This document shows, one piece after another, positions 18,054 through 23,986 of a stretch of 64,000 bases of DNA. Under the pieces are notes generated by a model that was given only the letters and a program-made list of their open reading frames with translations, was not told the DNA's origin and did no database searches. The stretch's first letter is position 1. Each line of letters opens with the position of its first letter. This DNA comes from Pseudomonadota bacterium (GTDB lineage: Bacteria > Pseudomonadota > Alphaproteobacteria > Rhodobacterales > Rhodobacteraceae). The translations under genes and the position numbers were made by a program. The stretch is taken from NCBI GenBank assembly GCA_039822785.1, contig JBCBMO010000006.1:212412-276411 (forward strand). The letters run 5' to 3'.

Positions 18054-18820
18054 TGGATCTGGAGGAAGGCGCGGGCACCGTGACGCTCGATGGCGAGGAG
18101 CGCGAGCTCATCCGCTCGCTGATCCTGACCGACCCGGAGCTGGTGCTGGCGGACGACCAGGTCATGCGCGCCCTGATCCGCGCGACCGGCCCGCTCGAAC
18201 GCAAGGTCGTCGATCTGCGCGACAAGCTGGTGGAGCGGCTGGAGACGCGGCTGTCGCGGCTGGTGTCGCAGAACCGCTCCATGATCGCGGCGGCCTACGA
18301 GAACGTGGCTTCGACCGATGCGGTCCATGCCGCCGTGCTCTCGGTGATGGAGGCCGGCGACCTGCCGGGCCTCGCGCGGGCGCTGGCCGATGTCCTGCCG
18401 CCCAGGGTCGCCATCGAGGCCGCGCGTCTGGGCGTGGAGGCCGAGGTCGACGATATCCATGCCGCTACCGCGCTGGGGCCGGGCGGGGAGGCGCTGCTCC
18501 TGCTGCCCAAGGGCACCGTGCAGCGGTACCTGCAGGTGGAGACCGGCATGCAGGAGGACGCGGCGCTCCAGACGATCGTCCTGCGCGCCGCGCCGCCCGA
18601 GGCCGAGACCTTCTATGAGCGCAGCGCCATCGCGTCGGAGGCACTGCTGCCGCTGACTCTGGACGGCACGGTGGGGCTGCTCGCCCTCGGCTCCGCCGAC
18701 CCCGAGCGGTTCACGCCGGAGCAGGGGACCGACCTGCTGGGCTTCCTACGCCGGGTGACGGAACTGCAGACGCAGCGCCATCTCGCCGCCTATGACGCCG
18801 CTGCCTTCGACGGGCTATGA
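18050..18820 (+). CDS. DUF484-family protein (GAF-like)
   Basis: [19 protein letters not shown] and [21 protein letters not shown]. Conserved position upstream of xerC. Confidence 0.85.
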
Positions 18821-19752
18821 GCGGGGCGGCAGCGGTCTTGGAGGACGCGCCGGCGGCACTGCTGGCTCGCTGGCTCGACTATCTGACGGCCGTGCGCGGT
18901 CGGGCGCCGCTGACGCGTGAGGCCTATGCCACCACGCTGCGGGGCTTTCTGCTGTTCATCGCGCAGCACGGCGGGGAGACCCCGACGGCGGCGCGGCTGG
19001 CGGCGCTGAGCACGGCGGAGTTTCGGGCCTGGATGGCGGCGCGGCGGCGGGCGGGCATCAAGGCGCGCACCCTGCGGCGCGAGCTGGCGGCGGTGCGCGG
19101 CTTTTTCGCCTGGCTCGAGGAGGCGGAGGGCCTGCACTGCCCCGCGCTCCTCACCCTCGCCACGCCCAAGACCGCACCCGGCCTGCCCAGGCCCATCGCG
19201 GCCGAGGATGCCCGCGCCGTGATCGCCGCCGTCGGTGCGCATCATGAGCCCTGGATCGCCGCCCGCGACGTGGCAGCACTGACGCTGATCTGGGGCGCTG
19301 GCCTCAGGATCTCCGAGGCCTTGGGCCTGCGCTGGCGCGATGCCCCGCTAAGCCCGGCGGTGCGGGTCATCGGCAAGGGCGGCAAGGAGCGTGAGTTGCC
19401 CGTCCTGCCCGTGAGCGCGGAGGCGGTGGAGCGGTATCGCGCCCTCTGCCCCCATCGCCCGGCGCCGGAGGGGCCGTTGTTCCTGGCCCCGCGCGGCGGC
19501 CCACTGCATCGCTCGCAACTGGCGGCCTCGATGGCGACGGCGCGCCGGGCGCTCGGTCTGCCGGATAGCGCCACGCCCCATGCGCTGCGCCATGCCTTCG
19601 CCACGCAGCTCCTGGCGGCCGGCGGCGATCTGCGGACCATCCAGGCCCTGCTCGGCCATGCCTCGCTGTCCACGACCCAGGTCTACACCAGTGTCGACGA
19701 CGCGCGCTTGCGCGCCGTCCATGCCGCCGCCCATCCGCGCCGCGAGGGCTGA
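18817..19752 (+). CDS. xerC: Tyrosine recombinase XerC
   Basis: GAGLRISE, GKGGKER, TPHALRHAFAT, LGHASLSTTQVY. The DUF484-xerC context marks the chromosomal gene. Confidence 0.92.
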   Translation: MSGAAAVLEDAPAALLARWLDYLTAVRGRAPLTREAYATTLRGFLLFIAQHGGETPTAARLAALSTAEFRAWMAARRRAGIKARTLRRELAAVRGFFAWLEEAEGLHCPALLTLATPKTAPGLPRPIAAEDARAVIAAVGAHHEPWIAARDVAALTLIWGAGLRISEALGLRWRDAPLSPAVRVIGKGGKERELPVLPVSAEAVERYRALCPHRPAPEGPLFLAPRGGPLHRSQLAASMATARRALGLPDSATPHALRHAFATQLLAAGGDLRTIQALLGHASLSTTQVYTSVDDARLRAVHAAAHPRREG

Positions 19753-19756
19753 GCGC

Positions 19757-20281
19757 TCAGATCGCGGCCTTCAGCGCGTCCATCTTCTTGGTGAGGAAGG
19801 TGAAGGTCGCCTCGTCCGACAGGGTGCCATCGTCGGCGAACTTGGTGCCGGCCCGGCCCACGAAGACCTCCGGGTTGAAGACCATCTTCATGTTGAAGGG
19901 CACGAGCATCAGGTAGAGCGCCGAGGTCGACCGCTCGCCCCCCGCATTGCCCGCGGTGGCCGAGATGACCGCACAGGGCTTGCCGGCGGTGCGCACCGGA
20001 TGCACGCGGCTGATCCAGTCCAGCGCGTTCTTCATCACCCCCGGCGGGGCCTTGTTGTACTCCGGCGTCGAGATCACGACGGCATCCGCCGCCTCGATCT
20101 GCCCGACCAGCGTGGTCACGCTCTCGGGCATCCCCTCCGCCTCAAGGTCCTCGTTGAAGAGCGGCAGGTTGAGGTCGGCCAGCACGAACTCGCTCGGCGC
20201 GAAGGCACGGGCGGCCTCCTTCACCAGCTTGGTGTTGACACTGTCGCGGCGCAGCGACCCAGAGATGCCGAGCAGTTTCAT
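19757..20281 (-). CDS. NAD(P)H-dependent FMN / quinone reductase (flavodoxin-like, ChrR type)
   Basis: MKLLGISGSLRRDSVN and ISTPEYNKAPPGVMKNALDWISR. ATG at 20281. Confidence 0.9.
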   Translation of the reverse strand: MKLLGISGSLRRDSVNTKLVKEAARAFAPSEFVLADLNLPLFNEDLEAEGMPESVTTLVGQIEAADAVVISTPEYNKAPPGVMKNALDWISRVHPVRTAGKPCAVISATAGNAGGERSTSALYLMLVPFNMKMVFNPEVFVGRAGTKFADDGTLSDEATFTFLTKKMDALKAAI

Positions 20282-20468
20282 GGCGTGCCTTTCGTCATGG
20301 GGATCCGGGCCAGAGGCTAACGGGGCATCGCCCACGATCCAGTCATCTATCGAGACTTTGATCCCCGATCCCGCCAGGCAGGCACGATCCAGCGCGAGAA
20401 CGACAAGATCATCCGCCGTGCTACCCTGCCCCGGCACCGGCACCGGGGAGGACCGCGGAGGGAAGGCC

Positions 20469-21512
20469 ATGGCCGACGGCGCAGAACCGCTCGATCTGGC
20501 GGACAGGGCCCGCGATACGGTCGTGCCGCCGGCGCGGCGGCGCGTGATGCCAGCGACGCGCGGCGCAGGTGCCGAGCCTGCGTTCGACCTCTACCACTTC
20601 GGCTTCTCCATCTGCTCGCACAAGGTGCGCCTGGTGCTCCAGGAGCTTGGGCACGGCTGGCTATCGCTCGAACTCGATCCCAGGAAGCTTGAGAACTACG
20701 CGCCCGACTACGTGCGCCTGCGCCTCGCCTCGTCCGCAGCGCAGGGCGCGCGCCCGGCCACCGGATGGGACGGCGGTTCCTCGGTGGCGGATGCCGGCTT
20801 CGATGCGCTGGCCGTGCCGACACTGGTCGATCGGCAGGCGCAGACAGTCGTGGCGGACTCGCTGCGGATCTGCCTGCATCTCGCAGAGCGCCATCGGGGG
20901 GAGACGGATCTCGTGCCGGCGGAGGTGGAGGCCGAGGTGCGGGCTCAATTGGCCCATGTGGATCGTACCCCGCATGTCGCCTTGCTCTATGGCCTCGATC
21001 CGGCGGGGGATCATCGGCCCTGGATCATCCGCCTCGCCCTTCGCGGGGCGCATCGGCGCAAGGCCAGCGCCGTCGAGGCGCAGTGGGACCAGGTGCGGGG
21101 CAGCGACACTGCGCTGGACACCGCCTATGCCGCGAAGCTGGCGAAGGAGCGCGCGGGCGCCCGTTTCGTCGCTTCAGCCGAGCGGATGCAGGGCGCCATC
21201 GACACGACCGAGGGGCTTTTGCGCGCCTTCGCCGCGGATCTCGCCCAGCACCAAGGACCCTGGCTGTTCGGTGAGCGGGCGACCCTCGCCGACCTTTTCT
21301 GGGCCGTCAGCCTCTTTCGTCTCCAGTGGCTCGGCTACGACCGGCTGTGGCGGGGGATGGGCCCCGTCGAGCGCTTTGCCGCGGCGGCCTTCGAGCGGCC
21401 CACGCTGCAACAGGCGGTCACCAAATGGCCCAGCCACCCCTGGTCGCGGCCGGCGTCACCATGGATGCGCCGGCCATCGCTGATCGATCGCCTCTCAGGC
21501 CTCGGCTCCTGA
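20469..21512 (+). CDS. linD: Glutathione S-transferase-fold protein, LinD-like reductive dehalogenase
   Basis: LYHFGFSICSHKVR, ENYAPDYVRLRL, GFDALAVPTLVD, TPHVALLYG, GPWLFG..TLADLFWAVSL and WPSHP match Sphingobium LinD as I recall it. 347 aa. Homology call; substrate unproven. Confidence 0.8.
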   Translation: MADGAEPLDLADRARDTVVPPARRRVMPATRGAGAEPAFDLYHFGFSICSHKVRLVLQELGHGWLSLELDPRKLENYAPDYVRLRLASSAAQGARPATGWDGGSSVADAGFDALAVPTLVDRQAQTVVADSLRICLHLAERHRGETDLVPAEVEAEVRAQLAHVDRTPHVALLYGLDPAGDHRPWIIRLALRGAHRRKASAVEAQWDQVRGSDTALDTAYAAKLAKERAGARFVASAERMQGAIDTTEGLLRAFAADLAQHQGPWLFGERATLADLFWAVSLFRLQWLGYDRLWRGMGPVERFAAAAFERPTLQQAVTKWPSHPWSRPASPWMRRPSLIDRLSGLGS

Positions 21513-21532: not shown

Positions 21533-22918
21533 TCAGGCGTGGATCGCGCCCACGCCGCAGGCAAGCGCCGCCTCCCGCACCGCCTCGGAGTAGGTCGGGT
21601 GGGCATGGCAGGTCATCGCCAGATCCTCGGCCGAGGCGCCGAACTCCATGGCCATGCAGACCTCGTGGATCAGGTCGCCCGCGCCGGGGCCGATGATATG
21701 CGCGCCCAGGATCCGGTCGGTGGCCTTGTCCGCCAGGATCTTGACGAAGCCCTCGGCCGCCAGGTTCGCCTTGGCCCGGCCGTTGGCCATGAAGGGGAAC
21801 TTGCCGACCTTATAGGCGCGCCCGGCCTGCTTCAGGCTCTCCTCGGTCTCGCCCACGCTCGCCACCTCGGGTGCCGTGTAGATCACGCCGGGGATGACGC
21901 CATAGTTCACATGGCCATGCTTTCCGGCGATCTGATCGGCGACCGCGACGCCCTCGTCCTCGGCCTTATGCGCCAGCATCGGCCCCGCGATCACGTCGCC
22001 GATGGCCCAGATGCCCGGCACATTGGTGCGCCAATGCCCGTCGGTCTTCACCTGACCGCGGTCCGTCATCTCCACGCCTGCCCGGTCGAGCCCCAGGCCG
22101 GCGGTATAGGGTCGCCGCCCGGTCGCCAGCAGCACGATATCGGCGTCGATCTCATGCGCCTCGTCGTCCTTGCGGGTCTTGTAGTGCACCGTCAGCGCAT
22201 TGCCCTTGTCGACCGACTGCACCGCGGCGCCCAGGACGAACTTGATCCCCTGCTTGGTCAGGATCTTCTGGAACTGGCGCTGCACCTCGGCGTCGTTGCC
22301 GGGGATGATGTGGTCGAGGAACTCGATCACCGTCACCTCCGCCCCCAGGCGGCGCCAGACCGAGCCGAGTTCGAGACCGATCACCCCGCCGCCGATCACG
22401 ACCATCCGCTGCGGCACGGCATTCAGCTCCAGCGCGCCGGTCGAGGTCACGACGCGCTTCTCGTCGACCTCCACCCCCGGCAGCGTCGCGGGCTCGGAGC
22501 CCGTCGCGATGACGATGTTCTTGGTCTCCAGCACCTGCTCGCCGACTTTGACCTGGGTGGGCGAGACGATCTCCCCCCAGCCCTGCACATATTCGACCTT
22601 GTTCTTCTTGAAGAGGAACTCGATCCCTTGGGTGTTGCTGTCGATGGCCTGCTGCTTGAACTTCAGCATCTGGGGGACGTCGATCTCGATCTCCTTGGCC
22701 TTGATCCCCATGGTCTTGAAGTTGCCCTCGGCCTCATGGACCAGCTCCGAGGCATGGAGCAGCGCCTTGGAGGGGATGCAGCCCACGTTCAGACAGGTGC
22801 CGCCGAGCGCGCCGCGGCCCTCGACGCAGGCGACCTTTAGCCCGCGTTGCGCCGCGCGGATCGCGCAGACATAGCCGCCGGGGCCACCCCCGATGATCAC
22901 CACGTCATAGTCAGCCAT
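21533..22918 (-). CDS. lpdA: Dihydrolipoamide dehydrogenase (E3)
   Basis: [31 protein letters not shown] and HAHPTYSE. Confidence 0.98.
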
Positions 22919-22969: not shown

Positions 22970-23365
22970 TCAGAGCAGCGCCGCCAGTAGCATCACCAGC
23001 GTCGCCAACATGCCCACGCCCCAGATGGCGGAGCGCAGCCACGGAATGCCCGCCCAATAGACCGGGGCATAGGCGATCCGCGCGATGAGGTAGATGATCG
23101 CGGCCCCCTCGGTCAGCGGCGAGGAGGCAGCCCCGGCCACCACCACCGCCGCCGCGATGGCAAAGAGGATCAGCCCCTCGATGTGGTTGTTGAAGGCCCG
23201 CTGCATCCGCCCGCAGAGCGCCGACATCTCCTTCGGCATCGGCGTGTCGCGCGGCCCGACCAGCCAGCTTTGCGGCAGTTCCCGGTTGGCAACGGCGGAA
23301 AAGATCACAAGCTGCACGATCGCCAGCACCCCGGCCCAGCCGAGAACCTGCAGCTCGACCGCCAT
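22970..23365 (-). CDS. MAPEG-family membrane protein
   Basis: GPRD, RMQRAFNNHIEGLILF and ARIAYAPVYWAGIPWLRSAIW; four hydrophobic segments. Confidence 0.85.
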   Translation of the reverse strand: MAVELQVLGWAGVLAIVQLVIFSAVANRELPQSWLVGPRDTPMPKEMSALCGRMQRAFNNHIEGLILFAIAAAVVVAGAASSPLTEGAAIIYLIARIAYAPVYWAGIPWLRSAIWGVGMLATLVMLLAALL

Positions 23366-23986
23366 CTACCGCTCTGCCAGGGCGAGGCGCAGTCCGAAAC
23401 CGGCAAAGGCACCCGCCACCGTGCGCCGAACCCAGGTCATGATCGCGGGGCGGCGCCTCAGCCCGTCCCGCACCTGCGCGGCGAAAAAGCCATAGAGCAG
23501 GAAGACCCCCAGCGTCATCGCCATGAAGACAGCGGTCAGCCCCGCCATCTGCAGCGCGACGCCACCCGCCTTCGCATCGATGAACTGCGGCAGGAAGGCC
23601 ATGAAGAAGATCGACAGCTTCGGGTTGAGGACGTTGATCAAGAAGCCCGCGCGCGCGATCTGAAACAGCCCCCGCGTCGTCGGCGCGTTGTCGTCAAAGC
23701 GCAGCGGGCCGCGGTCGGTCAGGGTCATCCAGGCCAGATAGAGCAGGTAGACAACGCCTGCGATCTTGACCGCCTGAAACAGGAGCGCGCTTGCATGGAC
23801 CAGGGCGGCCAGACCCAGGATCGCCGCGAGCGCGCCGGGCACGATCCCCAGCGTGCAGCCGGCGGCAGCAGCGGCGCTGGCCCGCGGACCGTGCGCCAGC
23901 CCGGTGGCAACCGTGTAGATCACGCCTGTGCCCGGGGCGATCACGACGACCAGCGCCGTCAGCAGAAAGTCGATGCCTAAGACCAT
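23366..23986 (-). CDS. LysE/RhtB-family exporter
   Basis: APGTGV, GVVYLLYLAW and GFLINVLNPKLSIFFMAFLPQF. Confidence 0.92.
   Translation of the reverse strand: MVLGIDFLLTALVVVIAPGTGVIYTVATGLAHGPRASAAAAAGCTLGIVPGALAAILGLAALVHASALLFQAVKIAGVVYLLYLAWMTLTDRGPLRFDDNAPTTRGLFQIARAGFLINVLNPKLSIFFMAFLPQFIDAKAGGVALQMAGLTAVFMAMTLGVFLLYGFFAAQVRDGLRRRPAIMTWVRRTVAGAFAGFGLRLALAER

Follow-up and report, generated by a model that had tools for sequence, protein, structure and literature searches.

LinD is a glutathione-dependent reductive dechlorinase (PMC4478539, PMC3318906), and in a 2011 description no aromatic reductive dehalogenases of aerobes were known besides it and PcpC (PMC3318906). Identity between the two proteins is 25%, and an independent recruitment of each is assumed; Copley and colleagues likened both active sites to those of maleylpyruvate isomerases and called the progenitor function of LinD and PcpC 'not clear' (PMC3318906). 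In PcpC and in DrcA, an active-site cysteine resolves the glutathionyl-aromatic conjugate, giving the dehalogenated product and GSSG (PMC3205185). A structural homology between LinD and GDAP1 was noted in a 2026 paper, where GDAP1 is proposed to bind thapsic acid in a non-canonical pocket (PMC13524606). The LinD family itself is small, and the 2,5-dichlorohydroquinone reductive dechlorinase is its sole characterised member; reductive dechlorination is the only activity demonstrated within it (PMC4478539).

The window analysed here, that is, the whole stretch of 64,000 nucleotides, carries a gene for a further member of this family, whose product we call P0001. The gene and its surroundings comprise the following features:

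18817-19752, plus strand: tyrosine recombinase of the XerC/XerD type, with Phage_integrase domains (TIGR02224, 263.5 bits, short of its equivalog cutoff, 335)
19757-20281, minus strand: NAD(P)H-dependent FMN/quinone reductase, 174 aa (Pfam families Flavodoxin_2/FMN_red; weak NCBIfam FMN reductase matches)
20282-20468, no strand: divergent intergenic region of 187 bp between the FMN reductase gene and the LinD-like gene (GGAGG at 20457-20461; direct repeat CACGATCCAG)
20469-21512, plus strand: LinD-family (GDAP1-related) glutathione transferase gene, P0001, 347 aa (open frame, LinD homology, GST fold in the AF2 model)
21533-22918, minus strand: lpdA, dihydrolipoyl dehydrogenase, end of the sucAB cluster (TIGR01350, 573.9 bits against a cutoff of 408.8), convergent with the LinD-like gene across a 20-bp gap

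An independent gene call on the identical public contig gave the same 347-aa product, and the GGAGG Shine-Dalgarno sequence lies 7 nt 5' of the P0001 ATG. The sequence-only reading had described a 347-aa GST-fold protein by a set of quoted motifs; the frame is indeed open and every motif was found, namely SICSHKVR at residues 47-54, ENYAPDYVRLRL at 75-86, GFDALAVPTLVD at 110-121, TPHVALLYGLDPAGDHRP at 167-184, GPWLFGERATLADLFWAVSLFRLQWLGY at 263-290 and WPSHP at 320-324. Its placement of the gene between xerC and lpdA, divergent from a flavin/quinone reductase, agrees with the gene coordinates and families above. These neighbours likewise bear out that the gene lies outside any lin/pcp cluster, and the absence of a nearby ring-cleavage dioxygenase holds as well; no LinE-like gene occurs in the window. 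Upstream of the gene, the promoter scan of 20282-20468 revealed no sigma-70 consensus, and promoter and terminator scans around the gene gave no informative signal. The same region contains an exact 10-nt direct repeat, CACGATCCAG, at 20333-20342 and 20383-20392 with a spacing of 50 bp and several GATCC motifs around it; the repeat could be an operator or could have arisen by chance.

General annotation resources say little about P0001. Only generic GST N-terminal domains scored above threshold in Pfam, and no fitting NCBIfam model was found; public pipelines name such proteins either 'glutathione S-transferase family protein' or '2,5-dichlorohydroquinone reductive dechlorinase'. Direct comparison with LinD was far more telling. 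Pairwise BLASTP of P0001 against LinD of Sphingobium indicum/japonicum UT26 (P0034, 346 aa, plasmid pCHQ1) gave 145 identities over 317 residues (46%) with an E value of 9e-89, a similarity far greater than chance would give. Tblastn against plasmids matched the annotated linD in eight Sphingobium/Sphingomonas plasmid records, among them Sphingobium UT26, B90A, MI1205 and TKS and Sphingomonas MM-1, at 46% identity, 90% coverage and an E value of 2e-75. Every motif block of P0001 aligned with a LinD counterpart, and the order of the blocks was unchanged. The resemblance to LinD in blocks, order and length that the sequence-only reading had put forward was therefore correct.

To place this similarity in the family as a whole, 1.84 billion 50%-identity clusters were considered, of which 338 representatives belong to the LinD family at E<=1e-3 and 51 at E<=1e-30. 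Most members come from metagenome-assembled genomes (MAGs) of uncultured Pseudomonadota and Cyanobacteria, with the alga Aureoumbra in addition, and lindane degraders make up a tiny fraction. Named relatives include Roseobacter, Yoonia, Jannaschia, Ruegeria, Pseudohaliea and Hoeflea, all of which we take to be marine genera. In a maximum-likelihood tree, P0001 fell into a clade of 29 rows (SH-aLRT 98) apart from LinD, whose other members are MAG proteins of Proteobacteria and Cyanobacteria and one algal protein. LinD grouped with P0028, which is 69% identical to it, and with P0053. When the tree was rooted on GDAP1-like sequences, the query clade (12 rows, SH-aLRT 98) became the sister of the LinD-containing group, and both lineages lay inside a crown clade of 24 rows (98) with several deeper branches outside it. 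Both trees are quick searches with SH-aLRT support only, and the identity of the GDAP1-like outgroup was checked. Because deeper branches exist and the query clade is derived, as sister to the LinD group, it is not basal, and the earlier suggestion that this gene represents the ancestral role of the LinD family is not supported by the phylogeny. P0001 does not share a subclade with LinD and is thus not its ortholog in the same-subclade sense. Judged by alignment and tree placement, P0001 is a genuine full-length LinD-family GST that is non-orthologous to LinD. Within the bacterial subclade of the query nests P0027, a 359-aa protein of the pelagophyte alga Aureoumbra lagunensis, which shares the C-terminal tail motif; its placement could be due to horizontal transfer or to a transcriptome contaminated with bacterial sequence.

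Residue conservation was compared across the family. Among 119 aligned homologues, 17 columns never vary (S47, C49, S50, K52, Y77, R85, G110, V116, P117, D165, Y174, D181, R183, K223, D275, W278 and R284), and P0001 keeps all 17. Many further columns are at least 90% conserved, D130 and S131 among them, and both of these residues are also kept in P0001. Three groups of codons correspond to the predicted active and glutathione sites:

20607-20630, plus strand: codons S47-I-C49-S50-H-K52-V-R54, predicted Ser/Cys catalytic motif, N-terminal end of helix alpha1 (S47, C49, S50 and K52 invariant in 119 members, R54 in 118/119)
20814-20822, plus strand: codons V116-P117-T118, cis-Pro loop of the predicted glutathione site (V116 and P117 invariant, T118 in 118/119)
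20856-20861, plus strand: codons D130-S131, predicted gamma-glutamyl-binding pair at the start of helix alpha3 (D in 110/119 with N in 9/119, S in 117/119)

The AF2 model of P0001 (pLDDT 95.6, pTM 0.94) shows the canonical GST order of secondary structure. Strand beta1 (39-44) is followed by helix alpha1 (48-60) with S47-x-C49 at its N-terminus, V116-P117 directly precedes strand beta3 (118-121), and D130-S131 opens helix alpha3 (131-141). Based on established GST topology, the model suggests that these elements are, respectively, the position of the catalytic residue, the cis-proline loop and the gamma-glutamyl pair. PcpC has a Ser-x-Cys arrangement at the start of helix alpha1, and S47 and C49 may correspond to its Ser11 and Cys13, as judged from this spacing and from the fold match to 2v6k. 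In a Foldseek search with the model, only GST folds were returned; the top match was this structure, a zeta-class maleylpyruvate isomerase, and GDAP1 was also listed. In sequence, P0001 stayed far below the curated cutoff of the zeta-class model TIGR01262 (maiA), with 19.7 bits against 171.05 and only residues 251-279 matched. Both in sequence and in the model, the C-terminus of P0001 is polar with two short helices only, and a hydrophobic C-terminal anchor is absent. P0001 is probably a soluble GST with predicted catalytic competence. The genome also encodes glutathione synthetase (gshB) and a gamma-glutamylcysteine ligase of the plant/alphaproteobacterial type, both above curated cutoffs, so the cofactor would be available.

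Among solved structures, GDAP1 was the closest by sequence, with an E value of 2e-7 for the single sequence and 4e-28 for the family profile, and the next GST in the family-profile search stood at 3.7e-10. As far as profile comparison can tell, the LinD family is specifically related to eukaryotic GDAP1, a protein anchored in the mitochondrial outer membrane and regarded as lacking canonical GST activity. The GDAP1-like outgroup proteins P0232, P0241 and P0261 keep the S-x-C-S-x-K-V-R motif; the assignment rests on an E value of about 1e-16 to human GDAP1 for P0232 and on the match pattern only for P0241 and P0261. The predicted catalytic cysteine thus appears to be ancestral to the LinD and GDAP1 group and to have been lost in human GDAP1.

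We compared the locus with those of relatives from the same genus. The FMN reductase gene was found in 30 of the 31 genomes of the genus and is thus a core gene, not part of the insertion. The LinD-like gene was absent from all nine relatives' loci examined. In the five relatives whose loci span both neighbours, lpdA is followed directly by the reductase gene with a spacer of 145-476 bp. Since this spacer lacks the LinD-like gene in genus relatives, the gene is a single-gene insertion into it, in opposite orientation. A homologue was found in only one of 24 other genus genomes searched, where it is 59% identical and sits at a different locus beside proA/proB/obg. A mobile-element signature was not detected at the locus, as there were no notable flanking repeats, no integrase besides the conserved XerC-type gene and no GC anomaly. 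The overall GC content of the gene (70.6%, against 68.1% for the window) agrees with the host-like GC described earlier, and its GC3 is somewhat lower than that of adjacent genes (0.83 versus 0.89-0.94); the native status that such composition might imply did not hold, the gene being a single-gene insertion. Surrounded by housekeeping genes, the LinD-like gene stands alone and is accessory. We considered a functional coupling to the adjacent FMN reductase and rejected it as evidence, as the reductase is core and lies beside lpdA in relatives; the pairing was not seen at other loci. The adjacency arose by insertion beside a core gene and may be coincidental. Between sucB and lpdA, on the minus strand at 22970-23986 of the window, we also observed an exporter of the LysE/RhtB type (206 aa) and an ORF of 131 aa without family match.

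To compare gene contexts, every ORF lying up to 8 kb from any of 80 homologous loci was clustered together with those of the window. In the query clade no conserved neighbours emerged, antisense shadow ORFs alone recurring, so the context gives no substrate. One member of the clade lies in a detoxification-type context, beside a divergent MarR gene and followed by genes for a flavoprotein reductase and an RND efflux pump; a cyanobacterial member adjoins a small GST_N protein, and further members are found among unrelated genes. Another subfamily, 37-43% identical to the query, occupies a conserved cluster (L096:4532-15372; also L055, L060, L062, L070, L076, L078 and L095). This cluster encodes a VOC extradiol-type dioxygenase, a TetR regulator, an FAD-type aromatic-ring hydroxylase (PRK06126, 521 bits; cutoff 445), the LinD-like GST, an FAH-family hydrolase and a 219-aa GST, together with an MFS transporter, cytochrome b561 and alpha/beta hydrolases. 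Its VOC dioxygenase was tried as a LinE-like protein and rejected, the BLASTP E value being 0.07. The cluster looks like an uncharacterised catabolic pathway for (halo)phenols or quinols in proteobacterial MAGs. The nearest relatives of LinD are encoded amid genes for dioxygenases and a PcpB-like hydroxylase, along with regulators of the LysR/AraC types, YCII proteins and further GSTs. Two fusion proteins were also seen. P0147 (639 aa) joins a LinD-like GST domain to an intradiol dioxygenase of the catechol/hydroxyquinol type (Dioxygenase_N and Dioxygenase_C), a Rosetta-stone link, and P0194 (573 aa) joins a Coq4 domain of ubiquinone biosynthesis to a GST distantly related to the LinD family (E 5e-19).

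A search of the genome for LinE/PcpA-like dioxygenases, as the sequence-only reading had proposed, yielded one two-domain VOC protein of the LinE/PcpA type, 35% identical to LinE, encoded on the minus strand of another contig (G000:C7:277916-278914; L006:9914-10915). Its gene is followed by that of an Abhydrolase_2 carboxylesterase, the two lying between trpS and a Usp gene, and the pair resembles the hydroquinone dioxygenase/esterase pairing of the Bacillus mhq operons. The LinE-like VOC gene occurs in 11-13 of 31 genus genomes; a linkage to the LinD-like gene was rejected, as none of the nine carriers that were also searched for a LinD-like gene has one. Neither an intradiol dioxygenase nor a lin- or pcp-type pathway was found in the genome, and no gentisate/homogentisate pathway genes were found near the LinD-like gene.

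For the reaction mechanism, substrate class and physiological role of P0001, we infer the following by analogy with characterised GSTs. With its invariant Ser-x-Cys motif and intact glutathione site, P0001 most likely follows a two-step chemistry of the PcpC/DrcA kind. Just nine positions consistently separate the query clade from the LinD clade, most of them by conservative changes; the active site is therefore likely to be very similar, which speaks for similar chemistry in both clades. Glutathione would be held by the cis-Pro117 loop and Asp130/Ser131, activated near Ser47, and would add to a quinone or to a tautomerised (halo)hydroquinone-type electrophile. Cys49 would then attack the sulfur of the glutathionyl conjugate, releasing the reduced (dehalogenated or deglutathionylated) aromatic and leaving a Cys49-SG mixed disulfide, from which a second glutathione would restore the enzyme with formation of GSSG. 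At the level of the family, ties to aromatic or quinol chemistry are provided by the L096-type cluster, the catabolic contexts of LinD relatives and the dioxygenase fusion. As the gene stands alone, detoxification of quinones or hydroquinones from the environment, perhaps halogenated ones among them, is favoured over a step in a catabolic pathway. P0001 would most likely be a glutathione-dependent, cysteine-resolved reductase of (halo)quinone/hydroquinone electrophiles with a detoxifying rather than a pathway role, a reading that we hold with slightly better than even confidence.

A narrower assignment, as a dedicated reductive dehalogenase for natural halogenated hydroquinones whose ancestral function LinD was recruited from, appears rather unlikely, although several observations agree with it. 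Reductive dechlorination is the sole activity demonstrated in the family, in LinD (PMC4478539). The predicted catalytic residues are conserved throughout, and the two clades differ consistently at no more than the 9 positions mentioned above. The relatives include the presumably marine genera named above, cyanobacterial MAGs and an alga, and bromo- and chlorophenolics of natural origin are a common feature of marine settings. However, in the rooted tree the clade is derived and not basal, no halogenase, hydroxylase or ring-cleavage gene lies nearby, and the context of the clade is not conserved. The hydroxylase/dioxygenase clusters offer a better progenitor context, since the closest non-lin relatives of LinD, at 69% identity, are already found there. 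A related idea, to which we attach slightly less weight again, is that the query clade, with its many presumably marine genera and a pelagophyte alga, might have detoxification as its dedicated role, dehalogenating naturally occurring hydroquinones and quinones that carry bromine or chlorine, and, together with the hydroxylase/dioxygenase clusters of sister subfamilies, might reveal the pre-pesticide function behind LinD.

That P0001 is instead a glutathione-dependent isomerase of the maleylpyruvate/maleylacetoacetate type, or has another non-redox GST activity, we consider quite improbable. The structural match to 2v6k is in its favour, as are the resemblance of the LinD and PcpC active sites to maleylpyruvate isomerases (PMC3318906) and the adjacency of the LinD-like gene to an FAH-family hydrolase in another subfamily. 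On the other hand, the TIGR01262 score is far below its cutoff, gentisate/homogentisate pathway genes are absent near the query, and in the FAH-containing clusters the separate 219-aa GST, which is maiA/GstA-like, could supply the isomerase. Least probable of all, and only barely credible to us, is a non-catalytic, GDAP1-like ligand-binding or regulatory GST-fold protein: GDAP1 provides the closest solved structures by sequence profile, and GST-fold regulators of the SspA type are among the weak matches, but Cys49 is invariant where GDAP1 has Ser, all glutathione-site residues are kept, the hydrophobic C-terminal anchor is absent, and LinD itself is an enzyme. The cysteine-resolved, glutathione-dependent reductase described above is the assignment that we prefer for P0001.

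Taken as a family, these proteins show that LinD belongs to a small but real group that exists independently of pesticide exposure, to which P0001 adds one uncharacterised, stand-alone, non-orthologous member. More useful leads lie at the family level, in the hydroxylase/dioxygenase clusters, the dioxygenase fusion and the link to GDAP1; these contexts are testable natural settings for LinD-type chemistry and bear on the question of the LinD progenitor.

Compared with the known systems, PcpC, the tetrachlorohydroquinone dehalogenase of Sphingobium chlorophenolicum and a zeta-class-like GST, is a mechanistic analogue of P0001 through its glutathione-dependent reductive dehalogenation (PMC3205185), with kinship at the superfamily level only. 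DrcA, the DIF-1 reductive dechlorinase of Dictyostelium, belongs to the Ure2p/Nu-like class and has no specific sequence kinship with P0001, yet it is an example of an active-site-cysteine GST acting as an efficient dehalogenase of a natural chlorinated aromatic (PMC3205185). With GDAP1, P0001 has in common an enlarged GST fold with extra helical insertions; human GDAP1 carries Ser at the position of the invariant Cys49, and P0001 has neither this GDAP1-class Ser nor the C-terminal membrane anchor. LinD is the closest counterpart, sharing with P0001 the N-terminal extension, both insertions, the order of the blocks, an identical S-x-C-S-x-K-V-R motif and identical glutathione-site residues. 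A C-terminal tail (consensus WPSHPWS.P...WMR.PSL.DR..GLGS) is specific to the query clade and missing from LinD. Unlike LinD, whose gene lies in a plasmid catabolic cluster with neighbours of the linE (dioxygenase) and linR (LysR regulator) type, P0001 has none of these and is encoded on the chromosome among TCA-cycle and housekeeping genes.
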